The position numbers and the translations under genes were made by a program. Below the pieces are notes generated by a model. That model made no database searches, was not told where the DNA came from, and saw only the letters and a list, made by a program, of their open reading frames with translations. A stretch of 32,000 nt of DNA, from NCBI RefSeq assembly GCF_025273655.1, contig NZ_CP045921.1, positions 1,049,309 through 1,081,308 on the forward strand, in the 5' to 3' direction. Below, one piece after another: positions 3 through 16,944 of this stretch. How positions within the stretch are numbered: the first letter of the stretch is position 1; each line of letters begins with the position of its first letter. Source of the stretch: Candidatus Saccharimonadota bacterium (GTDB lineage: Bacteria > Patescibacteriota > Saccharimonadia > Saccharimonadales > Saccharimonadaceae).

Positions 3-2120
3 GTGGCCGATCGCAATGTCATATCCGGCAACGCTGCTAATGGTATCGGCATCACCAACCAGGCTGCCACCGGTAACAAAATCATCGGTAACTACGCTGG
101 TACTAACGCTGCCGGCACAGCTGCCATCCCCAACTACGGAGATGCTATCCTACTGAACAACAGCCAACACAACGACATAGGCGGCACGACCGGCACCACA
201 CCCGGTGGCGCATGCACCGGCTCATGTAACCTGTTCTCCGGCAATACCCACAACGGCATAGGATTCTACCTAGCAGACAACAACTCCGTGAAAGGCAATT
301 TCGTCGGGCTCAACGCAAGCGGCACCAGTGCGGTACCAAACGACGACATCGGCATCGAGTCCCAAGAAGCTGCCGGTATCACCATCGGCAATGCAACCGC
401 CGCTGGACGCAATGTGATCTCGGGCAACAAGGGCGCCGGTATCCTGCTCACTGGTAGTGCCACCACTGGTAACGTCGTAGCAGGCAATTTCGTCGGCACC
501 AACTCCGCTGGTACTGGTGCTGTCGGTAACTACAGTATCGGCATTAGCGTCGGTAACTCACCGGGCCTGGGCAACGGCTACGCACGAAACAACACTATTG
601 GCGGCACGGTTGACGCAGCCATACCATGTAGCGCAGCATCAACGCCATGTAATGTCATCTCAGGTAACGGCCAAAACGGTATGATTCTATCTGGTGGATC
701 AGGGACTGGCAATCTCGTGCTCAGTAACCATATCGGTCTCGACATCAACGGCGCGTCAAACGCCAATGTGCGCAACGGTATGGACGGTATTGGGATCCTC
801 AATTCGCCCAACAACACTATCGGCAATGACCTGGGCACTGGTCGCAACTACATCGGTGCCAATGGTGGAGCTGGTATCGTAACAGCAGGCGACGCTACCG
901 ATACCAACACAATCGCTGGCAATTATATCGGCCGTACCCGCGACGGCTACTCGGGCAATGCACAGGGTGGTGTGGTGCTATGGGGCGGCTACAATATCGC
1001 CATCGTCGGCAACTCGATCGGTGAAAACGGTGGCTATGGTATAGATATCGACGGTAACAAGGTCAGCCAGAATGATGCGGGTGACGGAGATGCCGGCGTG
1101 AATCACCATCAGAACTTCCCCGATGTATACTCGGTACGCAACAACGTCGGTTCGTCGACCACTACCACTGTGAGCGGTATGATGAGTAGTGCGCCAAACA
1201 AACAATACCGCATAGACTTCTTCAACAGCGCAGGCTGCAACGCAGGTAAGCCAGACAACTACGGCGAGGGTAATTCATATGTCGGCTCACAGATTGTCGG
1301 CACCGACCAGTTTGGCAATATCTCATTCTCATACCAAACCCCCACAACACTGCCGGGCAACACATATCTCACCACTACTGCTACGCTCATGGACGGTTCG
1401 TCGCCACGAGAAACCTCCGAGTTTTCCAAATGTCGCGTTGTTAACGCCTCCAAGCCTGCCGTGTCAAATGGTGCCAACTGGCTACTCAAAGACGATCTCA
1501 CCGAGGGTGTACAGGATCAGCAGTTTGGCTATGGATTCCCGCCCAACATGCTACTGTGCGCGTGGGATCCCGCCAAACCAGGCACTAAGCTACCAGTGGT
1601 AGTATCTGGCAACACGTGGTTTTTCCGTGCTAGCTACACTACGGGTGTCGCCGACAAGGTTGTGTCGTACGGCCCCGCCAACGGCAAACCAGTCTGTGGT
1701 GACTGGAATGGCGACGGGATCGACACCATCGGCATGGTCGACCCCGCCATGCGCTGGACACTCCGTAACAGCAACGACGGTGGCCCAGCCAATGCCGATT
1801 TCCAGTATGGCGGTGCGGGTATCCCTGTCGTCGGTGACTGGAATGGCGACGGCCGTGACACCATCGGCGTGTTCGAAACCGACACTAGCTCTTGGCGACT
1901 GCGCAACGAAAACAACTCCGGCGTACCAGACTATTCGTTCCAGTACGGCGGCCTCGGCACCTACCCGGTCGTCGGCAACTGGAACGGCGGTAGTTCCGAC
2001 GGGATCGGCACCTACAACCCGGGCAACGGCGAGTGGTCGCTCCGCAACACGCTCAGTGGCGGCCCCGTCAATACACACTACTACTTCGGCCAGTCAAACC
2101 CCCGACCGATGATCTGGTAG
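3..2120 (+). CDS. Large secreted/surface repeat protein, 5'-truncated by the window edge: parallel beta-helix repeats followed by FG-GAP/VCBS-like repeats
   Basis: The ORF is open to the window start, so it is 5' partial. The first ~370 aa are imperfect turns with NVISGN / GNxIG / NTIGG signatures typical of right-handed parallel beta-helix (PbH1/CASH-like) repeats. The last ~190 aa carry 3-4 repeats of GDWNGDGxDTIG followed by W(T/R/S)LRN (FG-GAP/VCBS-like). Stop TAG at 2118-2120. Confidence 0.8.
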   Translation: MADRNVISGNAANGIGITNQAATGNKIIGNYAGTNAAGTAAIPNYGDAILLNNSQHNDIGGTTGTTPGGACTGSCNLFSGNTHNGIGFYLADNNSVKGNFVGLNASGTSAVPNDDIGIESQEAAGITIGNATAAGRNVISGNKGAGILLTGSATTGNVVAGNFVGTNSAGTGAVGNYSIGISVGNSPGLGNGYARNNTIGGTVDAAIPCSAASTPCNVISGNGQNGMILSGGSGTGNLVLSNHIGLDINGASNANVRNGMDGIGILNSPNNTIGNDLGTGRNYIGANGGAGIVTAGDATDTNTIAGNYIGRTRDGYSGNAQGGVVLWGGYNIAIVGNSIGENGGYGIDIDGNKVSQNDAGDGDAGVNHHQNFPDVYSVRNNVGSSTTTTVSGMMSSAPNKQYRIDFFNSAGCNAGKPDNYGEGNSYVGSQIVGTDQFGNISFSYQTPTTLPGNTYLTTTATLMDGSSPRETSEFSKCRVVNASKPAVSNGANWLLKDDLTEGVQDQQFGYGFPPNMLLCAWDPAKPGTKLPVVVSGNTWFFRASYTTGVADKVVSYGPANGKPVCGDWNGDGIDTIGMVDPAMRWTLRNSNDGGPANADFQYGGAGIPVVGDWNGDGRDTIGVFETDTSSWRLRNENNSGVPDYSFQYGGLGTYPVVGNWNGGSSDGIGTYNPGNGEWSLRNTLSGGPVNTHYYFGQSNPRPMIW
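1680..2090 (+). repeat. Intragenic tandem coding repeats (~135-nt period) encoding the GDWNGDG units
   Basis: An exact 20-nt duplicate GGTGACTGGAATGGCGACGG occurs at 1698-1717 and 1833-1852, 135 nt (45 codons) apart. A diverged third copy GGCAACTGGAACGGCGG lies at 1974-1990. Confidence 0.75.
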
Positions 2121-2133
2121 TTACGCACAGAGA

Positions 2134-2670
2134 TTAGTTTGCCGCCAAAAACATATCTACGATACGAGGAATCATGATCCTATGATGAGTGATAGTGCGC
2201 TCCGGAAGCGCGTCAACTGGCCAAAATTTTCCTTCTTGTATCTCGTCGTCGCTGACATCAGTTACGAAATAAAACATGTGATTTAGTTCTTTTGCACGCC
2301 TGGAATCACCAAAACGAAGCCCCGCATACTCAATCTCGTCTATAGGCTTGACGACTCCATGCATTTCATCACGTAGCACTCTTTCCCTACAACTTGGGAA
2401 GTCCTGTCCTTCGGCATCCGATGCCCGAATTATCGTGCCAGTCATGTGCCATTCGCCCGGCCAGAAAGGATCATCTTTTGGACGCTGAGTCAGGAGTACT
2501 TCAGTGATACCCTGATTTACACGTATAGCCAAGAGCTCGTATGACGGCTGTGTTATCTTGGCGCTCACGGCGATAAACAAGTCGAAAGGAAGGTATCCTC
2601 GCGGCAATCTATTGAGCGTGTCTACCGCTTGACTAATCTCTTCATTGCTAGGTCGGTTTGTAGTGTCCAT
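2134..2670 (-). CDS. Nudix-fold-like hydrolase with a degenerate Nudix box
   Basis: The track ORF (to 2685) begins at a TTG; the first ATG (MDTTNRPS...) is at 2670. The segment WPGEWHMTGTIIRASDAEGQDFPSCRERVLRDEMHGV resembles the Nudix signature GX5EX7REUXEEXGU but carries insertions. There is no SD. A TATTAT box ends 6 nt before the ATG. Confidence 0.5.
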   Translation of the reverse strand: MDTTNRPSNEEISQAVDTLNRLPRGYLPFDLFIAVSAKITQPSYELLAIRVNQGITEVLLTQRPKDDPFWPGEWHMTGTIIRASDAEGQDFPSCRERVLRDEMHGVVKPIDEIEYAGLRFGDSRRAKELNHMFYFVTDVSDDEIQEGKFWPVDALPERTITHHRIMIPRIVDMFLAAN

Positions 2671-2672
2671 AA

Positions 2673-2681
2673 TGATATAAT
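2673..2681 (+). promoter_or_regulatory. Extended -10 promoter element (TGATATAAT) for the rmlCD-rmlA operon
   Basis: TGATATAAT at 2673-2681 is a perfect TGnTATAAT. It is followed by SD AAGGAGG (2695-2701) and ATG 2716. No convincing -35 was seen. Confidence 0.4.
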
Positions 2682-2715
2682 ACAAGGAGCATTAAAGGAG
2701 GTGCAAGTACGGGAA

Positions 2716-4131
2716 ATGGCAGATATATCTTCAGAAATTGAATTCAATAAACAACTCAAATCATACGAAACATCTATCGATGGACTCGTTGTATATGATC
2801 TGCCTGTCTTCGGTGATAATCGCGGCTGGTTCAAGGAGAACTGGCAACGCGAGAAGATGACTGCCGTCGGCCTGCCTGATTTTGGGCCAGTCCAAAACAA
2901 CTTTAGCTTCAACGATAAGCGCGGTGTGGCACGCGGTATCCACGCCGAACCATGGGATAAGTATGTTTCACTTGGTAGTGGCCGTATCTTCGGTTTCTGG
3001 GTCGACATCCGCGAAGGCAGCGCTACCTATGGCGAGCATTTCACTGTCGAACTTGATCCGTCCAAAGCCATTTTCGTCCCCCGCGGCGTGGCCAACGGCT
3101 ACCAAACGCTCGAAGACAACACCGTCTATAGCTACCTGGTCAACGACCATTGGTCGCCGGACGCTCAGTACTCGTTCGTGAGTATGTTCGACGAGTCGAT
3201 TGGCATCGACTGGCCGATTCCGCTCAGCGAGTGCGAAATCTCCGACAAAGACAAAAATCATCCGAACCTCGCTGATGCTGTGGCGATCAAACCCAAGAAA
3301 ACCCTCATAGTCGGAGCCAATGGGCAACTAGGTCGTGCGCTTCAGGTTCTATACCCAGAGGCAGAGTGTGTTGACCGTGATTCTCTCGACATCTCTTCGC
3401 CAGATGTCTTCACCGCTCGTCGCTGGCGTGATTATGGTACAATCCTGAACGCAGCAGCCTATACGGCTGTCGACCTAGCCGAGACGGAGCAGGGTCGCCG
3501 CGACGCCTGGACTGCCAATGCCACCGCTGTTGCTAACCTTGCTCGCATCGCTACCGAATACGGCATCACGCTCGTCCACGTCTCGAGCGATTACGTATTT
3601 GATGGCACAGCCGAGCAGCACACGGAGGATGAGGACTTCGCACCGCTGGGCGTCTACGGACAGAGCAAAGCCGCCGGAGATATCGTTGTCAGCACCACTC
3701 CGTGCCACTACATCGCTCGCACTAGTTGGGTTATCGGCGACGGTAACAATTTCGTACGCACCATGAATTCGTTGGCTGAAAAGGGTATCAAACCAAGCGT
3801 CGTCAGCGATCAAATTGGACGTCTCACATTTACCGAGGACTTAGCCGCTGGTATTAAGCATCTCCTCGACAATAAGGCACCGTTTGGCACCTACAACATA
3901 AGTAATGATGGTGAGCCAGCCAGCTGGGCTGATATCGCAGCTGAAGTCTACGAGCTGAGCGGTAAGTCCCGTGACGATGTCACACAAGTCACCACCGAGC
4001 AATATTACGAGGGTAAGACAGGTATTGCCCCTCGCCCGTTGCAAAGTACGCTCAATCTTGAGAAAATAAAAGCTACAGGCTTCGCTCCGCGTGAGTGGAA
4101 GACCGCACTAACAGAGTATTTGGAGAAATAA
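2716..4131 (+). CDS. rmlCD: Bifunctional dTDP-4-dehydrorhamnose 3,5-epimerase / dTDP-4-dehydrorhamnose reductase (RmlC-RmlD fusion)
   Basis: The N-terminal half has the RmlC cupin signature ([18 protein letters not shown] ... HAEPWDKYV ... [14 protein letters not shown]). From about nt 3298 the RmlD Rossmann signature begins ([15 protein letters not shown] ... [12 protein letters not shown] ... YGQSKAAGD). The track start 2629 is a TTG that overlaps the divergent gene. ATG 2716 lies downstream of AAGGAGG. Confidence 0.9.
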
Positions 4132-4141
4132 AGGAGTTTTT

Positions 4142-4984
4142 ATGAAGGGTATTATTCTCGCAGGTGGATCCGGCACACGTTTGTGGCCTATTACAAAAGG
4201 TATTAGTAAGCAGCTGATGCCGATTTATGACAAGCCGATGATTTATTATCCGCTGACAACACTGATGTCGGCCGGTATTCGCGACATTCTCATTATCACA
4301 ACCCCCCACGACCAGGCTGCATTTCAGAATCTGCTTGGTGACGGTTCACAGTGGGGTATTTCACTTCAATACGCCGCACAACCAAGCCCAGACGGCCTAG
4401 CCCAAGCTTTCACTATTGGCGAGGAGTTCATTGGCGGCGACAAGGTAGCCATGATTCTAGGTGATAACATCTTCTATGGTATCGGCCTCGACAAACAGCT
4501 TCAAAAGCTCACGGATGTCGATGGTGCTGTCGGTTTCGCTGCCGAGGTAGAAGACCCTCACCGTTACGGCGTCTACGAGTTCGACGAGAACATGAAGGCA
4601 ATCTCGATCGAGGAAAAACCAGCCAATCCAAAATCCAACTACGCCAATGCAGGCCTATACTTCTGCGACAATGACGTGGTAGAGATTGCCAAAAATGTCC
4701 AACCAAGCGAGCGCGGCGAAGTAGAGATTACATCTGTACTCGATGCCTATCTGCAGCGTGGTAAATTAAGTGTTTCCCTGTTCGACGACGTCTGGCTCGA
4801 TACCGGCACGATTGACAGCATGACCGACGCAGCCGATTTCGTGAAAGTCATTCAGAAGCGCACCGGCCGCATCATCGCAAGCCCAGAACAAACCGCCTAC
4901 GAACAAGGTTTCATCACCCGCGAACAGCTCGACGAACTCGCCGTCCCGCTGAAGAAATCAGGCTACGGCAACTACCTCGCCTAG
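4142..4984 (+). CDS. rmlA: Glucose-1-phosphate thymidylyltransferase
   Basis: The N-terminus [38 protein letters not shown] is the classic RmlA/RfbA signature. SD AGGAG at 4132-4136 sits 5 nt before the ATG, and the gene starts 10 nt after the rmlCD stop. Confidence 0.95.
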
Positions 4985-5000
4985 CAACAAGACCCTTTAA

Positions 5001-5029
5001 AACCTCTCGGTCAACCTGAGAGGTTTTTT
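5001..5029. terminator. Bidirectional rho-independent terminator between convergent rmlA and the GT-C-like gene
   Basis: Stem AACCTCTC (5001-5008) pairs with GAGAGGTT (5018-5025) around a 9-nt loop. A T-run follows on the + strand (5024-5029), and TTTT(AAA) follows on the - strand. Confidence 0.7.
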
Positions 5030-6410
5030 AGTGTGAAGTTTTACGCAAGATTGAGCGCGGTGCATTTCGAACCACAAACCACACAAATAGGACACTAATA
5101 CTAGTAGCTAACATACTCCAGTAGAGAAATCTCGCATCTGTGACGATACTACCCGGTGCATACGACAGAATATTGAGCATCGACGACGCTAGCATCACTA
5201 TGATTGGTGAATATAGTGTACTCCTACGGTGTCTGCGTGTGATATAGACGGCACACAACAGGCTCACTGCGACCCAAAACCACGCTGCGTATATAAACCT
5301 GAAATTGGCGTAACCAAAGTTGACAGTGTAGGAATACAGGATTGACTGTGTCGCCCTACTCGTGAGTTTGGTTTCGTCTTGCCGCGGGAAGACCATCTGC
5401 GACTCGTCCGGGAACAAGAACTGCATATATGTCTCGACTTTTTGCGCCATATACCTTGCAGGATGCTGTGATACCACCTGTGTCCAGTACCGTACCAGCT
5501 CTCGGCGTACGTGTGCATCATGAAAACCAGTTTCGTTCTTGAAACCACCTGAGCACTCTTCCCATGTAGCAAGTTTGGTCTGCGGTTGTGCGTACAGCGA
5601 ACAGCCCGATATGCGCACGAGCTTGTCTCTGACATTCGCAGGTGCGGTGCGCTGTATCTCATCGCTCGGGACAATATTCACGATATCCAGCGCATACATT
5701 GTCACAGTCGAAGAGCTTTTGTATGCATGTGTCATATACCCAAGCAGACTTACAAAGATAAGTGAACCGATCGCTATACCTACCGTGACACCGCTCACCA
5801 TCAAGCTGCGGCGCTTACTACCTTGCGGCAACAATGTATCTGCATAAAGCCACATGAGTGGTAGTACCGCGGCCACCGCGTTGACGCGCAGTGCAATTGC
5901 ATAGATAAGTAGCAGCGGGGTTATGGTGGCAATAGATATGCGCAACCATCGAGCTGTAATATACTCCGTACGAAGCAACCACGTCAGCGACGCCGCGAGC
6001 AGCAATGCAGTTCCCATCTGAGTATCTTTCCAGAGTACCCCACTCACTGCCAATACACTCGGCACAAAGGCCAAAGCAAATACGGCCAGCGCCTTGGCGA
6101 CACTCCTAGTGCGACCAAACATCAACGCAGCGAACACATAGAGTCCTGACCACAAAAACACTTGCTGTAATAGCAACAATCCGCTGTCGTTGCCGCCCAT
6201 GACATATATCAGCCCTGACCACACCAGGGCCATTGCGATAGGATGCCATGTGTCAAGCTGGCAATCGCCTGTCGCCTGGCAGAGTTGCCATACCGTATCA
6301 GTGGTGCGCATGCCGGGGTAGAACAGCAGTATCGAGACGAAGAGACCCACCATAGCGGCAACCAATAACCACCACTGCCGCCAAATCGCAGTATTGCCCC
6401 TCTGAATCAT
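5028..6410 (-). CDS. Polytopic membrane protein, GT-C-type glycosyltransferase candidate (family unassigned)
   Basis: 460 aa with about 10 or more hydrophobic helices. The first external loop carries acidic and aromatic residues ([15 protein letters not shown]...[10 protein letters not shown]), as in ArnT/PMT-like GT-C enzymes. Its ATG 6410 overlaps the GtrA stop (ATGA at 6407-6410). Confidence 0.6.
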
Positions 6411-6862
6411 TGCGTCATTGCACCGCCAGCTAGTTTAGCGAAGAGCAGCCTACGCAGACTAAAGCTCCAGAACACAACAATCGCGACAGATATCAGTTTG
6501 CCGATGAGGTAGAAAATATGGAACTGCTCAACCGTTACCCATAGTATCAAGCCGTTAAGCAATAGTCCCCCAAAACCAATGAGTGAAAAAAGTAGGAACT
6601 CTGTCTTCTTCTTGTCCGAGCTTTCAAACACCCATAGAATACTCAGAAAATAGTTCACAATCGTACCCAATATAAACGCCAAAAATGCCGATACAAGGTA
6701 GTGAATATGAAGATGCGAAGTAAATATATAGAGACTACCTATATCTACTAATGCAGAAAAGCCGCCCACAAATATATAGCGAAACAGCTGTATCAGCCCA
6801 TGTTGTGAACGATCCACAAACAGTAGATTGTAATACTCACCAATCGTGCGTCGCTTGGTCAT
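6407..6862 (-). CDS. GtrA-family membrane protein (polyprenyl-phosphate-sugar translocation associated)
   Basis: [22 protein letters not shown] plus four TM helices is the GtrA-like signature. The track start 6871 is a GTG. ATG 6862 forms an ATGA overlap with the upstream SDR stop (6859-6861). Confidence 0.85.
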
Positions 6863-7902
6863 GACATCCACTTGAGAAGGCGAATCACACCCATTTTGGC
6901 CGCTTGGTTGTGTGCGGACACATCTTTACGATTCTCGATCTCTTTGCGGTTCTTGTGGTAGTAGGCGTAGGCTCTCTGGAGCATTTCACTATTAGTGAGT
7001 GTTGGCTTCCAGCCCAGCTCTTTCTTGATCCTTGAGGTGTCAAATACGAAACTTTCGGCGATCATCTTGTACTGATATGGACCGAGTGGTGACAGTCTAA
7101 GGAAGTACGCCACTTGCATGGCAGGGATGGCGATCCAACGGGGAAAATTGGCGACGCGCGCTTTCGAGTCTGTCTGCTTAATGACATATTCGTATGCTTC
7201 GCCAAACGTCGGCACGTCGTCCGAACCGATGTTGAAAATATTCGATTTGCTGTACGACAACGACTTCACGAACGCATCTACAAGATCCTGGGCATAGATA
7301 AACTGGTAGCGGTTTTTGCCGCCACCGACAACCCATACTTTCCTGTCTTCGTCGATAAATTCGAACAGGATAGCGAGCAGCCCCAGGCGTCCCGCATCGA
7401 TGATAGTCGGGCAGCGGAACATGATCGCATGAAAATCGTCTGTGTATTCATTCAAAATGTTTTCGCCTTCGAGTTTTGAGCGTCCGTATATCTCTACTGG
7501 GTTTGGCTCATCTGTCTCGAGCACTGGCCGATCGAAGCTTTCGCCCCACAAACAGTTCGACGATGTAAATACTACACGCTCGATACCAAATTTCTTCGCC
7601 AACTCCGCGACGTTGCGCGTGCCGTCAACATTACTCTCCCATAAGAACTGCTTGTCCTTGACGGCATGCGCTAGCATGGCAGCCACGTGGAATATCGCGT
7701 CGAATTTGTACTGCGTTGCGATCTTCTCAAGTAACTCCATGTCGCGTATATCACCCTGGTACGCAGTAAAATGAGGATGCGTAAATGTGTCCTTTTCGAT
7801 ATCAACGGATACGACTGTATAGTCTTTGTCGAGCAGTTCTTTTTTGAGTAGAGAGCCAAAAAAGCCAGCCCCTCCCGTGATCAAAATTGTCTTTTTCTTC
7901 AT
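6859..7902 (-). CDS. NAD-dependent epimerase/dehydratase (extended SDR)
   Basis: [17 protein letters not shown] is the Rossmann motif, and the YxxxK catalytic motif is YGRSK. The track start 7998 is a TTG. ATG 7902 is preceded by GGAG with a 7-nt spacer; ATG 7914 is an alternative. Confidence 0.85.
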
Positions 7903-8034
7903 ACTAGTCTCCATTCTACCATAAGTACGGTGTGCTATATCGGCCAAATAACTACCCGAACGAGTAGAAAATATGGTATGGTAGAAGTAATAAATCAAAC
8001 AACCTTAAGGTTTAGCGAGAGATTAGGATAGGAC

Positions 8035-9612
8035 ATGACGAAACAAAAGACTGCCATCATTATTGGTGCCGGCCCTGCAGGCCTCACAGCCGCACTAGAG
8101 CTGATCAAAAACACCGATATCAAACCAATCGTATTTGAGGCCTCAAACGATATCGGTGGTATCTCAAAAACAGTAAACTACAAAGGCAACCGTATCGATA
8201 TCGGCGGTCACCGCTTCTTCTCCAAGTCTGACACTGTGATGAAATGGTGGAACGACATCCTGCCAATCGAAAACACACCTGCGTCCAAAACGTTCATCAT
8301 GAAATACCGTGGCCAACAAGGCACGCTCAAAGGCGGCAAGGGCCCGAATCCAGACAAGACAGACGATGTAATGCTTGTACGCAGCCGCCTGAGCCGCATC
8401 TACTATGGCCGCAAGTTCTACGACTATCCAGTCTCGCTCAGCAAAAGCACCGTCAAAAACCTCGGCCCAAAGAAAATTGCCAAAATCGGCTATGGCTATG
8501 CTGCCACCAAGTTCCGCAAAGAAGACGAATCCAATCTAGAGGGCTTCTACATCAATCGTTTCGGCAAGGAACTCTACAACACCTTCTTTGCCAGCTACAC
8601 AGAGAAACTCTGGGGTGTTCCACCAAAAGAGATCGACTCTAGCTGGGGCGCACAGCGCGTCAAGGGTTTGTCGGTATCAAAAGTCATGCTCAACGCCGTC
8701 AAACCAAAGAAAAAAGCTGATATTAGCCAGAAAAACGTCGAGACAAGCCTGATCGAATCATTCCTCTATCCTAAACTTGGCCCTGGCCACATGTGGGAAA
8801 CGGTCGCCAAGATGGTAAAGAAGGGCGGCGGCGAAGTCCGCATGAACCAAGTCATCACCAAAATCCACGCCAAAGACGGCAAGATCGTAGCTGTTGATGT
8901 ACACGACTACAAAACAAAGAAGACCACCAAAGTCACTGGTGACTACTTCTTCTCGACCATGCCAGTCAACGAGCTGATCGCTGCGTTCGACGGCGTCAAG
9001 GTGCCAGCCGATGTCAAGCGTGTCGCCAAAGGTCTGCCGTTCCGCGACTTCATCACGGTGGGTATCCTAGCTAACAAGCTCAAGATCGCCAACCATACCG
9101 AACGCAAGACGAAGAATAACATCGTGCCCGACAACTGGATCTATATCCAAGAACCAGATGTAAAAGTGTGCCGATTGCAAATCTTCAACAACTGGAGCCC
9201 GTACCTCATCAAAGACCAAGATCAGATCTGGGTAGGCATGGAATACGTGGTAAGCGAAAAAGATGATGTCTGGAAAAAGAGCGACAAAGACATGGCGGAA
9301 TTTGGTATCAAAGAGCTCGAGAAGATCGATATTCTCGATCCAAAAGAGGTGCTCGATACAACTGTAATCAAACTCAAGAAGACCTATCCTGCGTACTTCG
9401 GCACCTACCAAGAGTTCGACAAGGTCAAAGACTTCACTGACGAGTTCGACAACCTCTACCTCATTGGTCGCAACGGTCAGCACCGCTATAACAACCAAGA
9501 CCATTCCATGCTCACTGCCATCGCCGCAGTCGACAACATCAAGACGGGCCGCAAAGACAAAGAAAACGTCTGGAACGTCAACGTCGAAAAAGAGTATCAC
9601 GAGTCAAAATAG
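8035..9612 (+). CDS. FAD-dependent oxidoreductase (amine-oxidase / UDP-galactopyranose-mutase-like Rossmann class)
   Basis: The N-terminus is [18 protein letters not shown]...[10 protein letters not shown]...IDIGGHRFF (GxGxxG dinucleotide fold plus GG motif). The protein is 525 aa with no TM segments and is divergent from the SDR-GtrA-GT-C operon. Confidence 0.8.
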
Positions 9613-9631
9613 AAATCCTATAGACTCCCAT

Positions 9632-9658
9632 AAAGTAGCCTCTCCGCGAGGCTACTTT
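9632..9658. terminator. Bidirectional hairpin terminator between convergent genes
   Basis: A perfect 11-bp stem AAAGTAGCCTC (9632-9642) / GAGGCTACTTT (9648-9658) encloses a 5-nt loop. Short T tracts sit at both 3' ends. Confidence 0.65.
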
Positions 9659-9665
9659 ATGATTC

Positions 9666-11171
9666 CTATGTAAAGAAACCGTAATACCGATCTATCAAGA
9701 GGATACACATACTCAGATGTACAATGGTCATAGGTAGAATGAGATAGCGCAGGCGAAGCGTATGGCGATACACACCTACGACACCCGGAGCCAGTAGTAG
9801 CAAACAAGGAATAAAATACCGCCCCTGTATCCCCGCCACACTTTCGGCCCCCACTGGTGTCCACACCAGCAAGAGGCTCACAAATATGCCTAGGCTGCAC
9901 ACCGCCACTAAGACGCCAGCAATAATCAATGCCAGAGTTCGCTGCTGCACTAAGAGTGACGCGTTAGCCTGCGACACATATCCTACAAAGAGTAGAAGCA
10001 CTACAACGTACATGCCTATAGCCCACATGGGAAGATTGACATTGAGCCGACCAAACGACCCGAACATCGACTGGAATGTCTCATCTGAGGCTTGCCCAAC
10101 TGCCGTACTTGCGACCGTCGACACGGCATAGAGTGGATCGCTCGTCACTTTACGAAGCTGCTCCTCGGGATTTACGGCAAACCCATTCGCACGCTGTATC
10201 AGACTTGTATCGGCATCTGTGGATTGATTGACGTATGTCCAGCCTATATACGCAACTACGACAGAGAGAAATACTAGTAACACAGGTAGTATTCGGCTCG
10301 CATACAGCTGGCTAGTGCGCCACCTGAACTGTTTGGTCCGCCGAACAAGCAACAGTGCAACAAAAGGCACAAACACAATATATGCCTGTTTGGAGAGTGC
10401 GAGTACACACGCGACGATGCCCAATATGACCCACCATCTGGTCTGGATTTGTGGGGGTGTGCGTGTCCAGAGATACATGGTGATTGCTATCAGGAGAGTT
10501 GTGTAGACAAACACCGAGACGTCAGCAGAAAGCGACCCAGCAAGAAACACTACCATAGGAGAAACGAGCACAGCCGCTATCAGCCACTTGCCTACAGGTA
10601 TGAGTCGTATTGCCGCGTAGCATAGCCCCACAAAAAAGAGTAAGTTACAAATACGCGCCGCGTAGAACATCACTCCTATGCGCGACGTAAACAGACGCGC
10701 CACCGCTATACCCGTAGCCTGCGGCACATATGCGACAGGTGAGTACGCTGCCAGATTCACAAACATGCGATCCGTACGCTCAGGTGTCACGCGTATCGCC
10801 ATAGCGCGCCGCGCAGTGTCAGGGGTATACTTCGCCGTATATAGATTAGGGAGGTTGTCGCGACTCACCATCTCTTCGAACTGACCGATTGCAGTCGGCA
10901 AGTGTGCACCCGATCCGGTGGATAGATTGTCTTGCCGGAAATTTAGTTCGCTTAGTGCATACGCGCGCGAAAAGTGCCCTATCTCGTCTGGCACCTGAAG
11001 CGGCGGTACGAGTGCAAGCACTACAAAACCAAGTATTGCCGCAATCAACACAAAGAAATAATCTGGACGTCTCAGTACACCTACCACTTTCCGAAAAATC
11101 ACCTGAGCCGTCGCCACAACAGCGTCCCTATCAGTATGCCACACGCACACGCACACAATATCCAACTCCAT
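9666..11171 (-). CDS. Polytopic membrane protein, DUF2142-like GT-C candidate
   Basis: About 12 hydrophobic helices. The first loop VPDEIGHFSRAYALS matches my recollection of the DUF2142 PDExxH motif. ATG 11171 overlaps the upstream gene by 73 nt. The alternative GTG 11102 forms a GTGA overlap with that gene's stop. Confidence 0.6.
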   Translation of the reverse strand: MELDIVCVCVWHTDRDAVVATAQVIFRKVVGVLRRPDYFFVLIAAILGFVVLALVPPLQVPDEIGHFSRAYALSELNFRQDNLSTGSGAHLPTAIGQFEEMVSRDNLPNLYTAKYTPDTARRAMAIRVTPERTDRMFVNLAAYSPVAYVPQATGIAVARLFTSRIGVMFYAARICNLLFFVGLCYAAIRLIPVGKWLIAAVLVSPMVVFLAGSLSADVSVFVYTTLLIAITMYLWTRTPPQIQTRWWVILGIVACVLALSKQAYIVFVPFVALLLVRRTKQFRWRTSQLYASRILPVLLVFLSVVVAYIGWTYVNQSTDADTSLIQRANGFAVNPEEQLRKVTSDPLYAVSTVASTAVGQASDETFQSMFGSFGRLNVNLPMWAIGMYVVVLLLFVGYVSQANASLLVQQRTLALIIAGVLVAVCSLGIFVSLLLVWTPVGAESVAGIQGRYFIPCLLLLAPGVVGVYRHTLRLRYLILPMTIVHLSMCILLIDRYYGFFT

Positions 11172-13345
11172 ACTATATTAGGAGGGGCATAGTAGAAGGT
11201 AATCTTCGACTCACCCTTCGGCAGAGATATCTTCTGGAATATATCCGACTCTTGCTGAATATCAACCTGGTGCCCGTCGACAGTAGCCTGCCACCCCGGA
11301 TAAAACAGCTCTCGACGCACCAATGTACCCGCTTCGTGGCAGTATGCCGTCATCTGATCTCGCGTCTGCGCCTGGATCGTGCAGAGGTCAGACTCGGCAT
11401 ATGGCGCCGGGTGCGGCAATTCATAAACCCAGACCGTGTTGCGATCATATACACGCACCAAGCCAGCCGAGGCCGCCTGCGCCTCCGTGATACCATTTTC
11501 TCCGAATACAGCGTACTTTACCCCGATCTTGCGATATTCGTCGATATTGGCCAAAAACTCCTGAATAGGTGGATGTTTCGCGAGATCCGTGGAGTATACG
11601 CCGGTGAAATTGACCGGATCACCCGCCTCCGGCGCAAGCTTGTTGGTGATATGATCTGCCCACAGTGTCGGCACAGGTAGATCGTTATTATTGACCTGAG
11701 CGATACCAAAATAAGAACCGTAGTTTGCCTGGATCGGCCCAAACGAGATGAAACGCTGCTGATCCAAGTTGGTACGCAAGAATTGTACCGCTCCATCTTC
11801 AACTTGCGCTGGTCGCTTAGTCGCGGCAAGCTGTGGGATTGCGAATAGCACTACAGCCTCCGCGATCACTACTACAGTAACAAGCGCCAGCGCTATACGT
11901 CTATGTCGACGTGGCGCATACACGAGATACGAAATTGCGCCTACTACGACACCCGCAATCCCAACAGATAATATCAGCCAACGCTTATAATTTGTCGTGT
12001 CGGTATTGCCCGGGATCTGGCTCCACACGATCAGCGCGATGACAATCACAAACGTAGCCGTACCCGCACCAAACGTATAGCGCATCTTGCGCGATACCCC
12101 CCTATGAGCCACATGATCAAGCGCCATCGCCGCAAGAATCACTACCGCACACACCACTGTAGGTGTGAGGTACCGATATACAGCCGTCTCCTTCATAGCG
12201 GGCAATACACTCAGGATGTCCGTAATAAGTGGTGCGGCAAAAATTCTAGCCGTCACTACCACTGCCCATACTACCAAGAACACTCGCACTGCGCGTGGGT
12301 ACTTCGTGGCGAACATCCCAAGTAGTGCCAGTAGCAATGCAGCAAACGTGACGTAGCCGCCAATGCTAAACCAAGTGCCTAGCAGTTCGATTGACCCCGC
12401 GTCCGACATCGCCCCGTATACATACGGCACAAACATCATCGGAAGCCCCGCCCAGCTCAGGCCTGCGTGCTTCAGCGCCTCACCGTCGTGCACTCCGAGA
12501 TGCGAAACTGAGAGAGTCTGCACAAACGGCACAATAGCTGGAGCCGCTAGCAGCAGCCCCACACATCCAGACAACCCAAGGTTCATGTAATATCGCCATC
12601 TCGAACCCTCTAACCCTACAGTACGCACAAGTGCCCAGCCGAGTACAAAAAGACCGTTGAGATAGGCTGTCTCTGGAAAGCCCGCGTAGAGCGATAGTGC
12701 GAGACTAAGCGAAAAAATGACACCTATACATAGCGGATGTCGTGTCCGTGCTGTACCATTTCGTAGATACTCAATACCCAGCAACATCCACGGCAAAAAC
12801 GCCACGGGATTACAGACGGCATTGGCGAGCCATGCAAATGTGCCGCACAAGCCAAAGAGTACGCCGCCCACCGTAGAAGCGCGACGATCCAGTTCCAATT
12901 TGCGCAAGAAAAGATACATTCCGACGCCAGCTATAAGCTCCAGTGCCAGCTGAAACAGCAAAAAACCACCCTGCACCGTAAGTAGTAGCGTCAACGGGAA
13001 CAGTGCCGCCGACTGTGCGTTTGCAAGTAATGGAAATCCAATCCCCTCGTCATGATTCCAGTAAGGCATATCGCCCGCTTGCACCTGACGAGCTGCTGCT
13101 GTTCCGAGCGCCTGTTTGGTGTAACCGTCGTTCGGGTCTATCGTGTTGTCACCGTCAATATAGCGTGTGTAGTCGGTCTGACCCATAAGCGGCAAACCAG
13201 AGCGCTTCAAGACCGGATTTGGGTTCGTCAGAAAAATCGAAATGCTGTTTGCCAGCACAATACAGATCACAATCACAAGCAACGCGTAGATATCACGCTT
13301 ATATCGCTTCCACATCGAACCGCATCGTTTTTTCAGATTTGTCAC
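11099..13345 (-). CDS. YfhO-like large polytopic membrane glycosyltransferase (GT-C)
   Basis: 748 aa with many TM helices plus a C-terminal soluble domain and a final TM. The N-terminal loop MPYWNHDEGIGFPLLANAQSAALFPLTLLL resembles the YfhO family signature. The start is GTG 13345; ATG 13315 is an alternative. Confidence 0.65.
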   Translation of the reverse strand: MTNLKKRCGSMWKRYKRDIYALLVIVICIVLANSISIFLTNPNPVLKRSGLPLMGQTDYTRYIDGDNTIDPNDGYTKQALGTAAARQVQAGDMPYWNHDEGIGFPLLANAQSAALFPLTLLLTVQGGFLLFQLALELIAGVGMYLFLRKLELDRRASTVGGVLFGLCGTFAWLANAVCNPVAFLPWMLLGIEYLRNGTARTRHPLCIGVIFSLSLALSLYAGFPETAYLNGLFVLGWALVRTVGLEGSRWRYYMNLGLSGCVGLLLAAPAIVPFVQTLSVSHLGVHDGEALKHAGLSWAGLPMMFVPYVYGAMSDAGSIELLGTWFSIGGYVTFAALLLALLGMFATKYPRAVRVFLVVWAVVVTARIFAAPLITDILSVLPAMKETAVYRYLTPTVVCAVVILAAMALDHVAHRGVSRKMRYTFGAGTATFVIVIALIVWSQIPGNTDTTNYKRWLILSVGIAGVVVGAISYLVYAPRRHRRIALALVTVVVIAEAVVLFAIPQLAATKRPAQVEDGAVQFLRTNLDQQRFISFGPIQANYGSYFGIAQVNNNDLPVPTLWADHITNKLAPEAGDPVNFTGVYSTDLAKHPPIQEFLANIDEYRKIGVKYAVFGENGITEAQAASAGLVRVYDRNTVWVYELPHPAPYAESDLCTIQAQTRDQMTAYCHEAGTLVRRELFYPGWQATVDGHQVDIQQESDIFQKISLPKGESKITFYYAPPNIVWSWILCACACGILIGTLLWRRLR

Positions 13346-13473: not shown

Positions 13474-14052
13474 ATGCAGCTACAAAAACAAAAAAGTCGC
13501 AAAAAACCGCTCATCATCACATCGCTTATCATACTTTGCGTCGCCGTAGCAGTGGGCGCATGGTATGTAATACATACGCGTAGTCAGCAGTCCGAATCTT
13601 ACACCACCAAACCAGCCACACAAGAGGAAAAGGACGCGGGAACTCAGACAAAACAGGATTCGATCAACAACTCGAGCCAACAGGGTGCGTCTGACTCTGA
13701 TACTAGCACCAACAGCGACAAGCAATCTGGTGCCTCGACCGACACCGGTACATCTACCACTACTCCTGCTGCTGCCGTCACTATCTCTGCAAGCGCCCAA
13801 AACGGCAACACCTACCAACTTCGCTTCCTCATCAACTCTGTCGTCACTGGCGGCACCTGCCAACTGACGCTCACAAAAGGTAGTGCAACCGTCACCAAAC
13901 AAGCGGCTATTCAGTCGCTCGCTCAGTCCTCAACTTGCCAGGGCTTCGACATCCCTACGAGCGAGCTCAGCACGGGTACCTGGAACGTCTCAATGCAGCT
14001 CAGTGGCAGTAGCCATACTGGTGGCGTAACTGGCACCATAGAGGTAAGGTAG
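13474..14052 (+). CDS. Membrane-anchored extracytoplasmic protein with a Ser/Thr-rich linker; function unknown
   Basis: A basic N-terminus precedes one TM helix (LIITSLIILCVAVAVGAWYVI). An ~80-aa S/T/Q/D-rich low-complexity linker follows, then a ~90-aa beta-rich domain with two Cys. Good SD. The gene ends 8 nt before the next gene. Confidence 0.6.
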   Translation: MQLQKQKSRKKPLIITSLIILCVAVAVGAWYVIHTRSQQSESYTTKPATQEEKDAGTQTKQDSINNSSQQGASDSDTSTNSDKQSGASTDTGTSTTTPAAAVTISASAQNGNTYQLRFLINSVVTGGTCQLTLTKGSATVTKQAAIQSLAQSSTCQGFDIPTSELSTGTWNVSMQLSGSSHTGGVTGTIEVR

Positions 14053-16005: not shown

Positions 16006-16944
16006 CTACTTCGTTTCGCGATGTGGTTTCTTCACAAGGGCGAGTGGGCGAGCGATAGTTTCACCGATTCGATATTTCTTTGAGCGATAAATTTTGTGAA
16101 TATCCTTGTCTAAGCGAGAGATTTCATGCCTCATTTGCCGCGCGTCTTGATCCTGTTTCTTTACCATAGCTTCGCTAGTGGCAAGTTTCTGTTTGAGTTC
16201 ATCTATCTGGCCATCGCGCTGCATACCGCAGCCGATAGGGAGATCTAGATGATTCACGACGTCTGGGTATTTCTGTTGCCATTTCTCTAGGATGGCGCAG
16301 AAATCGTACATATTCTCCCAGAGTGTCTTAGTGGTTGCTCGCGTACCAGTACGGACCCGGTAGTTGATATATGAATCCGCCGCCAACACAAACTTCTTGC
16401 CAGCTAGCGCAAGCCCTAGGAAATAATCCCAATCTTCGGCAATAGCAACACTTTCAAACTCATGATCCACCGTGGCGCTGCGTCGGATCAATGACTCAGC
16501 CGTACAGTGCAGCTCCTGTTTGATGAGCTTTTGCACGTCAAACTCGGCAAACTCAGTGCGATATTCTTGGTCGCCAAACACATGCCAGTTTGGATACACT
16601 ACATCAGCATGAGTCTTTTCGGCAATAGCAACCATCTGCTCGATATATCCCTTATCGAAGAAGTCGTCTGCATCGAGAAATACTGCATACTCACCTTTTG
16701 CTATTCGTAATCCTTCGTTGCGAGTATAGACAATCCCGTGATTTGCGCGACTAATAACCCGTAGATTACTCTGGTACTTATTGATAACCTGCAACGAGTT
16801 ATCTGTCGATCCGTCATCTATAGCGATGATCTCGATATTGCTATATGTTTGTGCTAGTAGACTCTCTATTGCCTCGCCTACAAACTCCCCATAGTTATAG
16901 CAGGTGATAATTGCAGATACGAGCGGTGTCTTCATGTCTTTCAT
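16006..16944 (-). CDS. Glycosyltransferase family 2 with a C-terminal coiled-coil tail
   Basis: VSAIITCYNYGEFVGEAIESLLAQTY...IIAIDDGSTDNS and FLDADD form the GT-A/DxD signature. The last ~60 aa (DELKQKLATSEAMVKKQDQDARQMRHEISRLDKDIHK) are heptad-like and charged, with no TM. Confidence 0.85.
   Translation of the reverse strand: MKDMKTPLVSAIITCYNYGEFVGEAIESLLAQTYSNIEIIAIDDGSTDNSLQVINKYQSNLRVISRANHGIVYTRNEGLRIAKGEYAVFLDADDFFDKGYIEQMVAIAEKTHADVVYPNWHVFGDQEYRTEFAEFDVQKLIKQELHCTAESLIRRSATVDHEFESVAIAEDWDYFLGLALAGKKFVLAADSYINYRVRTGTRATTKTLWENMYDFCAILEKWQQKYPDVVNHLDLPIGCGMQRDGQIDELKQKLATSEAMVKKQDQDARQMRHEISRLDKDIHKIYRSKKYRIGETIARPLALVKKPHRETK

Follow-up and report, generated by a model that had tools for sequence, protein, structure and literature searches.

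A UGM-like flavoenzyme and a GtrA-family protein in a putative furanosylation cassette of a Candidatus Saccharimonadota polysaccharide locus

Within the 32-kb stretch of Candidatus Saccharimonadota DNA analyzed here (32,000 nucleotides, referred to as the window), genes for an extended SDR, a GtrA-family protein and a polytopic membrane protein lie divergently from a gene for a flavoprotein. What could these four proteins do together? An earlier note on this DNA read them as a module for lipid-linked sugar handling and transfer. Its main model was a DprE1/DprE2-like epimerization on the lipid carrier, with a pyranose-furanose mutase-like flavoprotein as the alternative.

Two transcription units in a rhamnose polysaccharide locus

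Three of the genes are on the minus strand: those of the polytopic membrane protein (5028-6410; 460 aa), the GtrA protein (6407-6862; 151 aa) and the extended SDR (6859-7902; 347 aa, with an ATG/MKKK start at 7902). The flavoprotein gene (8035-9612; 525 aa) is on the plus strand. For GtrA we used an ATG start instead of the GTG start at 6871 given in the mechanical list of open reading frames. The minus strand reads 'tcATGAcc' at 6862..6859 and 'caATGAtt' at 6410..6407, which are two real ATGA stop/start overlaps. Such overlaps are frequent in operons and are a sign of translational coupling, so they are not unusual per se. From the MKKK start of the SDR, the divergent spacer (7903-8034) is 132 bp. 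ORF coordinates and strand reads thus confirmed the four genes, both overlaps and the spacer as previously described, and genes called independently on three metagenome contigs with identical proteins had the same boundaries (347, 151, 460 and 525 aa). Reading the 132-bp spacer revealed no promoter consensus above chance and no inverted repeat. The two transcription units are flanked by a hairpin with 17-nt arms (4992-5034; 82% complementary), a likely terminator where rmlA and the 460-aa protein gene converge, and by a perfect 14-bp inverted repeat (9629-9661), a likely bidirectional terminator where the flavoenzyme and DUF2142 genes converge.

An rmlC-rmlD fusion and rmlA (2629-4984, plus strand; matches to TIGR01214, TIGR01221 and TIGR01207), for dTDP-L-rhamnose synthesis, mark this as a rhamnose-polysaccharide locus. 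Around the cassette we also identified genes for a Wzm/Wzt-like ABC transporter that resembles a galactan exporter, a pyruvyl transferase, and GT2 and GT4 proteins. One of the several cytoplasmic glycosyltransferases is weakly GlfT1-like (45 bits). On the minus strand beyond the flavoenzyme gene are genes for a GT-C-related polytopic DUF2142 protein (9666-11171; PF09913 8.8e-58, weak PMT_2, 9 TM segments) and a YfhO-like polytopic GT-C protein (11099-13345; PF09586 4.4e-13, 12 TM segments). These are second and third candidate extracytoplasmic transferases, and the DUF2142 protein could share the same GtrA. DUF2142 genes also adjoin the flavoenzyme gene in other genomes (loci L006, L007, L011, L027 and L034), and in L017 the gene of a YfhO-type protein directly follows it. 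Neither a GtrB-like or DPMS-like polyprenyl-P-sugar synthase nor a UbiA-type phosphoribosyltransferase was found in the 32-kb window, and its 312-aa GT2 has no TM segment and scores only 27 bits to PgfS.

Family and fold of the four proteins

The flavoprotein matches the Pfam models Amino_oxidase/NAD_binding_8 and belongs, end to end, to an unnamed NCBIfam family (NF005546 / PRK07208.1-2, 821 bits; 'hypothetical protein'). Its best phmmer matches in the PDB were the UDP-galactopyranose mutases (UGMs) of T. cruzi (2.5e-14) and A. fumigatus (~1e-11). A profile search against the PDB gave a UGM match at 5e-20, and the PDB sequence matches that extend past the N-terminal FAD-binding (Rossmann) region were UGMs. 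Each of the top 35 Foldseek matches of its AF2 model (pTM 0.81) was a UGM of the eukaryote type (TM 0.71-0.81), and a second tier of matches contained amine oxidases and protoporphyrinogen oxidases.

Alignment with the A. fumigatus UGM (AfUGM) revealed that the flavoprotein keeps the catalytic loop His of the mutases and every Arg/Tyr residue that binds phosphate. The corresponding positions (flavoprotein=AfUGM) are H59=H63 (GGH loop), R118/S120=R91/S93, Y131=Y104, F184=F158, Y188=Y162, W193=W167, R208=R182, W368=W315, Y370=Y317, R380=R327, Y451=Y419, R479=R447, Y485=Y453 and N487-Q-D-H=N457-Q-D-H. All of these are invariant among 17 flavoenzyme sequences (alignment A1; 63-85% identity). The AfUGM uracil-contacting positions Q107 and N163 are changed in the flavoenzyme, to T/S and T, respectively. 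Pfam GLF did not match the flavoprotein, and its TIGR00031 score is far under the cut-off. Together with the two altered uracil contacts, this raises the possibility of a substrate other than UDP-Gal.

The protein thus resembles eukaryote-type UGMs (A. fumigatus 3ute/3uka; T. cruzi 4dsg) in its length of ~500 aa, three-domain fold, FAD Rossmann motif, GGH histidine loop, diphosphate-holding Arg pair and Tyr residues, NAD(P)H-site residues (R91/S93) and C-terminal R..Y..NQDH motif. However, it is only ~20% identical to them, and UGMs are missing two features of its family, a Lys-rich insertion at ~213-240 and a C-terminal tail that is conserved. With classical Glf (E. coli 1i8t, K. pneumoniae, M. 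tuberculosis) it shares the flavin mutase superfamily and the F..Y..K.W substrate-loop motif, but Glf has ~370-400 aa and matches it only locally (E 1e-6 to 1e-3), and the neighbors of Glf genes encode cytoplasmic Galf transferases, not GtrA or GT-C proteins. No UGM is known whose gene shares the flavoenzyme gene's linkage to those of GtrA and polytopic membrane proteins. From its sequence and predicted structure, the flavoprotein is probably a UGM-like enzyme, an NDP-sugar pyranose-to-furanose mutase. The alternative in the earlier note is therefore the better reading: in fold and active site, the FAD protein clusters with the soluble UDP-sugar mutases.

The SDR matches PF01370 (Epimerase, 6.5e-40) and scores under all NCBIfam equivalog cut-offs. 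Its motifs are GalE-type, as are its nearest PDB structures (8rdg, 4zrm and 3ehe). It is an extended GalE-like epimerase from a highly conserved family of ~345-aa proteins, with 3959 homologues whose identity is 63-77% across Patescibacteria, Bacteroidota and Altiarchaeia. Genes of this family are associated with those for GtrA and GT-C proteins, and adjoin them in 6 of 8 sampled contexts. Locus L084 has a GtrA-SDR pair without the flavoenzyme, and L088 encodes a true GalE besides its member of the SDR family. The mutase may thus receive its substrate from another enzyme.

An HMM built from FAD-adjacent GtrAs other than this one gave the GtrA protein (PF04138 8e-23, 81 bits; 4 TM segments) 156 bits, compared with 27-62 for unrelated GtrAs. 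By these scores the protein is an orthologous member of a flavoenzyme-linked GtrA subfamily that is found beside the flavoenzyme in many phyla, and a putative flippase for a polyprenyl-P-sugar.

The 460-aa protein had been labeled GT-C-like as a guess. No Pfam or NCBIfam model matches it, and its family, for which Pfam has no model, has 4265 representatives at E<=1e-3 in an exhaustive HMM search. The AF2 model (pLDDT 92, pTM 0.93) has ~11 TM helices and a helical loop domain (228-350), and 15 of its top 20 Foldseek matches are GT-C enzymes, although at TM values of only 0.33-0.43. D38 (after TM1), D129 and D242 are invariant in the family, and two relatives (P0213 and P0215) are natural fusions to GtrA. 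The fold is predicted to be remotely GT-C-like, with weak structural scores, and we consider the protein a putative extracytoplasmic glycosyltransferase.

Linkage of the flavoenzyme gene across genomes

We sampled 80 genome loci with the flavoenzyme gene. One GtrA subfamily is adjacent to it in 31 of them, typically overlapping it or no more than ~10 bp upstream. A co-directional polytopic gene abuts it in 28 of 75 loci (37%), compared with 13 of 268 control genes (4.9%), and GtrA and polytopic neighbors are ~8-fold enriched over control genes. Of ten sampled polytopic neighbors, three match PMT_2 (one under the Pfam cut-off) and one matches YfhO. All four gene types are on one strand in L065 and L088 (both GtrA-SDR-FAD-polytopic). 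L085, with co-directional GtrA-FAD-SDR, is also among the loci reported to have all four, overlapping. Neither neighbor is present at about half of the flavoenzyme genes, suggesting that the enzyme is able to work outside such a module. GT2 genes are within 6 kb in only 10 of 38 related cassettes, with GtrB-like architecture in three, and some cassettes are directly flanked by housekeeping genes (L016, L020, L045 and L063).

These contexts, the GtrA subfamily and the GtrA fusions agree with the earlier idea of a functional module for lipid-linked sugars. The expected four-gene synteny in relatives held only in part: GtrA-FAD and GtrA-SDR are conserved pairs, but the window's particular GT-C partner recurs in one of the 80 loci (L005).

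A proposed furanosylation pathway and its alternatives

We consider it reasonably likely that the region is a cassette for extracytoplasmic furanosylation, by which the rhamnose-containing, ABC-transporter-exported cell-wall polysaccharide of the surrounding locus is decorated. In the cytoplasm, the SDR would epimerize a nucleotide sugar, most likely UDP-Glc to UDP-Gal, or alternatively UDP-Xyl to UDP-L-Ara. The flavoenzyme would then contract the pyranose ring to a furanose, using reduced FAD as the nucleophile as in UGM. The furanose would be put on polyprenyl phosphate, moved to the outer membrane face by GtrA, and transferred onto the polymer by the 460-aa protein; the adjacent DUF2142 and YfhO-type proteins would probably do the same with other acceptors. 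The loading step is the most conjectural, because the window and most related cassettes lack a GtrB-type synthase.

This gap could be filled by the flavoenzyme itself replacing GtrB at the membrane, with a dedicated GtrA and no need for a GT2, which we regard as possible but unlikely. It would either isomerize housekeeping polyprenyl-P-pyranose to polyprenyl-P-furanose or resolve the flavin-sugar adduct with polyprenyl phosphate, not UDP (NDP-pyranose + polyprenyl-P -> polyprenyl-P-furanose + NDP). The flavoenzyme does hold the GtrB position in GtrA-X-GT-C cassettes, some bordered by housekeeping genes and 28 of 38 without a GT2 inside 6 kb. The tight gene spacing with a distinct, co-varying GtrA subfamily, the conservation of the phosphate-binding residues but not of the two base-specific contacts, and the tail and insertion absent from UGMs point the same way. 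However, no flavin mutase is known to use a lipid phosphate as substrate or acceptor, and most of the nucleotide pocket is kept (Y131, F184, Y188 and W193), which favors an NDP-sugar substrate. Short or GtrB-like GT2s are present in L026, L029, L037 and L088, distant paralogues of the flavoenzyme are coupled to GT2 genes, and half of the family has no nearby GtrA. Parts of three-component systems are also often encoded apart, as for L. lactis CflA, which is unlinked to CsdAB (PMC9574508).

It is also doubtful that the flavoenzyme merely supplies UDP-Galf, or another NDP-furanose, to the GT2/GT4 enzymes that assemble the exported polymer in the cytoplasm, with the SDR-GtrA-membrane-protein operon as a separate side-chain system for a different sugar. 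The monocistronic, divergent flavoenzyme gene with its own terminator, the cytoplasmic glycosyltransferases, the galactan-exporter-like Wzm/Wzt, the family members lacking GtrA or GT-C neighbors and the flavoenzyme-free pair in L084 would suit this division, but it is specifically to the flavoenzyme-linked subfamily that the window's GtrA belongs, the neighbor enrichment is strong, and L065, L085 and L088 have the four gene types overlapping and in one direction. We find very improbable the DprE1/DprE2-like two-step model, in which the flavoprotein oxidizes a polyprenyl-P-sugar hydroxyl to a keto intermediate that the SDR then reduces, before GtrA flips the product and a GT-C protein transfers it. 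Its appeal lies in a gene content that parallels Rv3789-DprE1-DprE2-AftA, in the independent linkage of both enzyme families to GtrA and GT-C genes, and in a fold common to amine and protoporphyrinogen oxidases; ORF13 is a genetic precedent for an SDR acting on an undP-furanose (PMC11127046). However, the UGM-specific set (GGH loop, R182/R327 pair, Y317/Y419/Y453 and N457-QDH) is invariant, which, with UGMs as the nearest solved relatives, speaks against a role of the flavoprotein as an oxidase in place of DprE1. UGM chemistry is redox-neutral. The SDR is extended GalE-like and not of the classical DprE2 type, the flavoenzyme is far more often without it (a strong match in only 1 of 80 loci), and a UbiA/PPPRS gene is absent from the window.

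The proposed furanosylation cassette would combine features of known systems. In the mycobacterial decaprenyl-P-arabinose pathway, a furanose also comes from a lipid carrier and GtrA-family, flavoenzyme, SDR and GT-C genes are neighbors, but DprE1 is a VAO-type oxidase, whereas the enzyme here is UGM-type with two dinucleotide-binding domains. In three-component pentofuranose side-chain systems, a GT-C adds a furanose extracytoplasmically from a polyprenyl-P donor (Kelly et al. 2024, PMC11127046). These start from PRPP, their UbiA-like synthase carries a phosphatase domain and their transporter is MATE/SMR, and in one of them an auxiliary GalE-like SDR epimerase, ORF13, alters sugar identity (PMC11127046). 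The extracytoplasmic furanose, the auxiliary SDR (likened to ORF13 by description) and the ABC-transporter-dependent polysaccharide locus are similar here, but the transporter is a GtrA, there is no UbiA-like protein, and the furanose would come from flavin-dependent ring contraction. As in GtrA-GtrB-GtrC systems (Shigella/Salmonella Gtr, CsbB-GtcA-YfhO and L. lactis CsdAB-CflA), a 4-TM GtrA and a polytopic GT-C that varies by lineage form a compact cassette whose flanking genes can be unrelated. The middle gene here encodes a mutase-like flavoenzyme, not a GT2 polyprenyl-P-sugar synthase; a nearby GT2 is usually missing, and an SDR is sometimes inserted. This core of a mutase-like flavoenzyme and the small putative lipid-sugar flippase GtrA recurs in most bacterial phyla and in some archaea.

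Family, fold and active site of the flavoenzyme

The 525-aa flavoprotein (8035-9612, plus strand) had been proposed to act like DprE1 in the oxidation and reduction of a lipid-linked sugar, with a pyranose-furanose mutase-like enzyme as the alternative. It matches NCBIfam model NF005546 (PRK07208.1-2) end to end at 821 bits. This model is named only 'hypothetical protein', and public annotations of the relatives read 'NAD(P)/FAD-dependent oxidoreductase' or 'protoporphyrinogen oxidase'. The only PDB matches reaching past the N-terminal Rossmann motif were UDP-galactopyranose mutases (UGMs), and the eukaryote-type enzymes scored highest (Trypanosoma cruzi UGM 4dsg, 2.5e-14; Aspergillus fumigatus UGM, 5e-20 with a family profile). 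The AlphaFold model of the flavoenzyme is of moderate quality (pLDDT 77, pTM 0.81). When it was run through Foldseek, a check that the earlier note had suggested, all of the top 35 matches were eukaryote-type UGMs (TM 0.71-0.81, probability 1.00), with protoporphyrinogen oxidases lower.

We compared the flavoenzyme with A. fumigatus UGM (AfUGM) residue by residue and judged invariance in a 17-member family alignment (63-85% identity). The GxGxxG Rossmann motif (GAGPAG, residues 11-16; NAD_binding_8, 9e-12) is invariant, as is G57-G58-H59, which corresponds to the histidine loop beside the flavin in AfUGM (G61-G62-H63). The diphosphate-binding residues R182, R327, Y317, Y419, R447 and Y453 of AfUGM correspond to R208, R380, Y370, Y451, R479 and Y485, all invariant, so that both arginines essential in AfUGM (R182 and R327) have counterparts. 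The same holds for the N457-Q-D-H stretch of AfUGM (N487-Q-D-H here), for R91 and S93 of its NAD(P)H site, for the stacking residues Y104 and F158 (Y131 and F184 here), and for Y162..W167 and W315. The uracil contacts are altered in the family, with Q107 replaced by T or S and N163 by T (T189).

The family also differs from UGM in an extra Lys-rich insertion and a conserved C-terminal tail. Pfam GLF (PF03275) did not match at E<0.01, and TIGR00031 reached 36.6 bits against a cut-off of 303.75. Sequence and model lead us to conclude that the protein belongs to an uncharacterised family of flavin-dependent enzymes resembling pyranose/furanose mutases. Its substrate is probably a sugar diphosphonucleotide, although neither nucleotide nor sugar is certain. 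It has a fold of GR2/amine-oxidase/UGM type, and the VAO-type FAD_binding_4 domain of DprE1 (PF01565) gave no match. The flavoenzyme is thus not a DprE1 analogue: the UGM fold and conserved mutase active site bear out the alternative reading, and the DprE1-like chemistry has to be given up.

The cassette and its surroundings in the window

The gene arrangement described earlier is present in full. ATGA stop/start overlaps at 6862..6859 and 6410..6407 link three minus-strand ORFs: those of a 347-aa extended SDR (6859-7902, MKKK start), a GtrA-family protein of 151 aa (6407-6862) and a polytopic protein of 460 aa (5028-6410). The flavoenzyme gene diverges from this operon over a 132-bp spacer, in which a promoter scan revealed no consensus above chance. 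A hairpin (4992-5034) closes the transcription unit of the 460-aa protein and a perfect 14-bp inverted repeat (9629-9661) that of the flavoenzyme. Three metagenome contigs that carry identical proteins have the same gene boundaries in independent calls.

The SDR contains TGGAGFFGS (TGxxGxxG), the Ser of TSSN and Y-G-R-S-K (YxxxK) in its translation, aligned to 8rdg. The dehydratase motif TDE is missing, and the structures closest to the protein are those of GalE-type epimerases (8rdg, 4zrm and 3ehe). It falls below every NCBIfam equivalog cut-off; TIGR01179 (GalE) scored 104.7 bits against 262.3, with the N-terminal half alone aligned. DprE2 is a classical adh_short SDR of ~250 aa, and the proposal of a DprE2-like reductase does not fit this extended (PF01370), GalE-like protein.

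The GtrA protein is small, with four TM segments, and matches PF04138 at 81.3 bits (cut-off 26.1). Against an HMM of the flavoenzyme-linked GtrA subfamily, built without it, it scored 156 bits. We therefore regard it as the orthologous partner of the flavoenzyme, despite the rearranged local gene order.

A word-seeded search found three relatives of the 460-aa protein; with an exhaustive profile search the number rose to 4265 representatives at E<=1e-3 (737 at E<=1e-30). None of 61 members (the protein and 60 relatives) matched a Pfam family at a meaningful score, placing the protein outside the GT-C families described in Pfam (PMT, PMT_2, YfhO, DUF2142, Dpy19 and others). Its AlphaFold model is excellent (pLDDT 92, pTM 0.93) and has ~11 membrane helices, where a crude hydropathy scan gives 7 (GT-C enzymes are polytopic, with 8-13). 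Conserved cysteines lie in its helical loop domain, at ~228-350. Foldseek returned GT-C enzymes (ArnT, AglB/STT3, Pmt1, ALG3, DPY19, AftD) for 15 of the top 20 matches, at a probability of ~1.0 but with weak similarity (E>=1.2e-3, TM 0.33-0.43). D38, directly after TM1, is invariant in the 61 sequences, as are D129 and D242. From the topology, we infer that D38 lies in the first extracytoplasmic loop, like the conserved acidic residue of GT-C enzymes. Two family members (P0213 and P0215) carry an N-terminal GtrA domain, and this Rosetta-stone evidence argues that the family works with a GtrA-flipped donor. We regard the 460-aa protein as probably a glycosyltransferase acting outside the cytoplasm, remotely GT-C-like in fold and outside any described GT-C family. 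Five other relatives (P0125, P0126, P0130, P0156 and P0264) are 820-1386 aa long, with two to four tandem domain copies and no Pfam match; these may be multi-transferase fusions.

An rmlCD fusion and rmlA lie upstream of the cassette, and genes for DUF2142 and YfhO-type polytopic proteins directly beyond the flavoenzyme gene. Farther out come the gene of a lectin-domain protein, GT2 and GT4 genes, one for a pyruvyl transferase and those of a Wzm/Wzt-like ABC transporter, with jag and yidC last. On the basis of these genes we interpret the window as a rhamnose-type cell-wall polysaccharide locus. As called mechanically, the DUF2142 ORF shares 73 bp of the minus strand with the YfhO-type ORF (11099-11171; 58 bp as called on related contigs), suggesting that these two extra GT-C genes are co-transcribed.

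Some other genes of the locus are worth recording. The 642-aa lectin-domain protein (14061-15989, plus strand) combines three lectin-like bacteriocin (putidacin L1 family) stretches with a B_lectin domain; it scored 117 bits against NF033557, below the cut-off, and could either bind glycans at the cell surface or act as a lectin-like bacteriocin. The 192-aa protein upstream of it (13474-14052, plus strand) has no family match above cut-off. Between glycosyltransferase genes, a SucC/SucD-like pair (26534-28466, plus strand; ATP-grasp_2 and Ligase_CoA, CoA_binding and Succ_CoA_lig) would be odd in a reduced genome of roughly 1 Mb, and may serve polysaccharide acylation (e.g. succinylation) rather than the TCA cycle. 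No Pfam or NCBIfam model matches the ORFs at 3-2120 (plus strand; 705 aa, cut by the window start) and 2134-2685 (minus strand; 183 aa), and the former is called as an 888-aa gene on related contigs.

Gene linkage across genomes

The flavoenzyme family is very large, and all 8000 of the candidates scored passed E<=1e-10. The 80 best genome loci (53-81% identity) come from Saccharibacteria, other Patescibacteria, Actinomycetota, Bacteroidota, Planctomycetota, Acidobacteriota, Desulfobacterota, Pseudomonadota and Methanobacteriaceae. Between Saccharibacteria at one end and Planctomycetes and methanogens at the other, the cassette keeps 53-58% identity. Carriers that can be cultivated include Microbacterium ginsengisoli DSM 18659 (L012), Methanobacterium sp. 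ACI-7 (L027), Taibaiella lutea (L051), Kolteria novifilia (L028), Pontimicrobium aquaticum (L076) and Desulforhopalus vacuolatus (L053). Unbiased clustering of the neighbours revealed one strongly recurrent partner, the GtrA protein. With a dedicated HMM, it was adjacent in 31 of the 80 loci, mostly upstream on the same strand and overlapping or within ~10 bp. These GtrAs scored 150-213 bits, versus 27-62 bits for other GtrAs of the same loci.

In a census of 75 loci, 11 have the order GtrA, flavoenzyme, polytopic protein; 10 have GtrA followed by the flavoenzyme; in 12 the flavoenzyme precedes and in 5 it follows a polytopic gene; and 37 have neither partner. A co-directional polytopic neighbour was found in 37% of flavoenzyme loci versus 4.9% (13/268) of control genes from the same loci, and many of the downstream polytopic genes overlap the flavoenzyme stop codon. 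When ten polytopic neighbours were compared with Pfam, three matched PMT_2 (one below the Pfam cut-off), one matched YfhO and the rest had no family. The acceptor-specific GT-C component of Gtr-type systems is typically variable in the same way (PMC9574508). A homologue of the 460-aa protein adjoins the flavoenzyme gene in one of the 80 loci (L005), so we consider this partner lineage-specific. Housekeeping genes directly flank several cassettes. Of 38 cassettes, 10 have some GT2 within 6 kb and 28 have none; a GtrB-like architecture is seen in 3.

Apparent flavoenzyme fusions (oversized ORFs in loci L030, L042, L058, L059 and L064) proved to be ORF-calling artefacts of high GC. The single 'phage' match (MT835743.1, locus L091, 'Bacteriophage sp.', UNVERIFIED) is of bacterial origin and gives no evidence that phages carry the cassette. 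Beside a flavoenzyme homologue and a DUF6044 protein, it has genes for V-ATPase subunits, a LysR regulator and a Spo0A C-terminal domain, and it looks like a mislabelled, Clostridia-like contig.

Distant paralogues (36-38% identity, ~490 aa) occur on plasmids of Methylomagnum (L092) and Gloeothece (L093). Here the gene is preceded by a GT2 of roughly 350 aa, not by GtrA; the two genes overlap in Methylomagnum, where a GT39 (GT-C) gene also adjoins. The coupling to GT2 genes in these paralogues shows that GT2 enzymes can be partners of the wider superfamily, and PRK07208 subfamilies appear to differ in their fixed partners.

The SDR family is tightly conserved (~345 aa; 63-77% identical across Patescibacteria, Bacteroidota and Altiarchaeia), and many of its matches fall on contigs equal in length to ones with flavoenzyme matches. 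We sampled eight of its contexts. The gene types of the cassette recur together in one of the flavoenzyme loci and in one of these contexts: L065 (Patescibacteria), a flavoenzyme locus, has GtrA, SDR, flavoenzyme and polytopic genes in this order, all overlapping, and the sampled context L088 (Parcubacteria) has a short GT2, GtrA, SDR, a flavoenzyme (PRK07208.1-4), a 611-aa protein, a GtrB-like GT2 and a 566-aa protein. The four-gene synteny that the earlier note proposed to test in relatives is found at the level of gene types; the 460-aa partner itself recurs at one locus in 80. In Bacteroidota (L085) the order is GtrA, flavoenzyme, SDR. Two contexts have no flavoenzyme: in L084 (Altiarchaeia) a Dpy19-like GT-C gene is followed by overlapping GtrA and SDR genes, and in L086 the nearby GtrA is 3.4 kb from the SDR, in a locus that also has a short GT2 and a protein of 466 aa without a Pfam match. 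The SDR lies next to PMT-type GT-C genes in L087 and L090. In L089 (4750-8038) and a related contig (P0381), UGDH, a 315-aa SDR and the SDR form an overlapping operon, with PMT_2 and the flavoenzyme nearby and GtrA on the related contig. Judged by these contexts, it is GtrA and GT-C genes, rather than the mutase itself, that the SDR accompanies.

The simplest reading is that the SDR supplies the epimer for the mutase. By analogy, it may act after lipid attachment, as the GalE-like ORF13 of C. youngae O2 (locus MH325884.1) converts undP-Ribf to undP-Xylf (PMC11127046). A true GalE coexists with the SDR family member in the L088 cluster. The UGDH operon suggests that a uronic-acid or pentose (UDP-Xyl/UDP-L-Ara) branch feeds the mutase in some lineages. 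The 315-aa SDR of L089 is ambiguous (TviC/GalE/LegB-like, not clearly a decarboxylase), which makes the UDP-Xyl to UDP-L-Ara route a lead only.

A putative furanosylation pathway and its lipid-loading step

The observed family and fold assignments, active-site conservation and gene linkage are best accounted for by a cassette for extracytoplasmic furanosylation, all of whose activities are predicted. The SDR epimerase and the flavin mutase would make an NDP-furanose; our default guess is UDP-Galf from UDP-Glc, with UDP-L-Araf as an alternative hinted at by L089. The furanose would be loaded on polyprenyl phosphate, flipped by GtrA and transferred by the 460-aa protein, and probably also by the DUF2142 and YfhO-type proteins, to the rhamnose polymer or other acceptors. 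The earlier note was right to see a sugar-transfer module here and mistaken about the DprE1-like chemistry.

Lipid loading is the weak point of the model, because neither the window nor most related cassettes encode a GtrB-type synthase. We found no GtrB/CsbB-like GT-A/GT2 polyprenyl-P-sugar synthase in the 32 kb. A 312-aa GT2 (16006-16944) was rejected as a GtrB equivalent: it has no TM segment and no meaningful similarity to GtrB or PgfS (PgfS, 27 bits). One possibility is that the synthase is encoded elsewhere, as could be expected by analogy with L. lactis CflA, which is unlinked to the rest of its system (PMC9574508). Another, which we consider rather unlikely, is that a PRK07208-type flavoenzyme and its dedicated GtrA make polyprenyl-P-furanose independently of a GT2. 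The flavoenzyme would then contract the ring of a lipid-linked pyranose, or hand a covalent flavin-bound furanose to polyprenyl phosphate, replacing GtrB. If so, GtrA, flavoenzyme and GT-C would form a self-sufficient furanosylation cassette, pan-prokaryotic in spanning bacteria and Methanobacteriaceae, with chemistry not previously described.

The furanosylation model has the flippase/GT-C logic in common with Gtr-type three-component systems, the PRPP-based pentofuranose systems (PMC11127046) and the mycobacterial DPA pathway, and differs from each in how the furanose would be made. The pairing of a putative GtrA-family flippase with a GT-C transferase, as in three-component systems, is predicted here from sequence and models. 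Pentofuranose three-component systems use a UbiA-like polyprenyl-phosphoribose synthase with a phosphatase domain (Kelly 2024); no window ORF of at least 150 aa encodes a UbiA-like protein, an HAD match or a VAO-type flavoprotein.

In the literature that could be searched, we found neither the flavoenzyme family nor a GtrA-mutase-GT-C cassette described, and likewise no lipid-linked hexofuranose donor. Mammals lack furanose sugars (Galf, Araf), whose biosynthetic enzymes are drug and vaccine targets. To our knowledge, the known hexofuranoses are all installed in the cytoplasm from a nucleotide donor, and the known lipid-linked furanose donors all derive from PRPP. Coupling of a UGM-like flavoenzyme to a GtrA flippase and a GT-C enzyme would imply a third route, in which ring-contracted, lipid-linked furanoses are used outside the membrane, and the usual lack of a GtrB-type synthase makes a concrete, testable puzzle of it. 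Our analyses point to a pan-prokaryotic, unannotated glycosylation cassette. Assigning its function would re-annotate thousands of genes, and would also cover two conserved undescribed families, the ~345-aa SDR and the 460-aa membrane protein (~4000 representatives).
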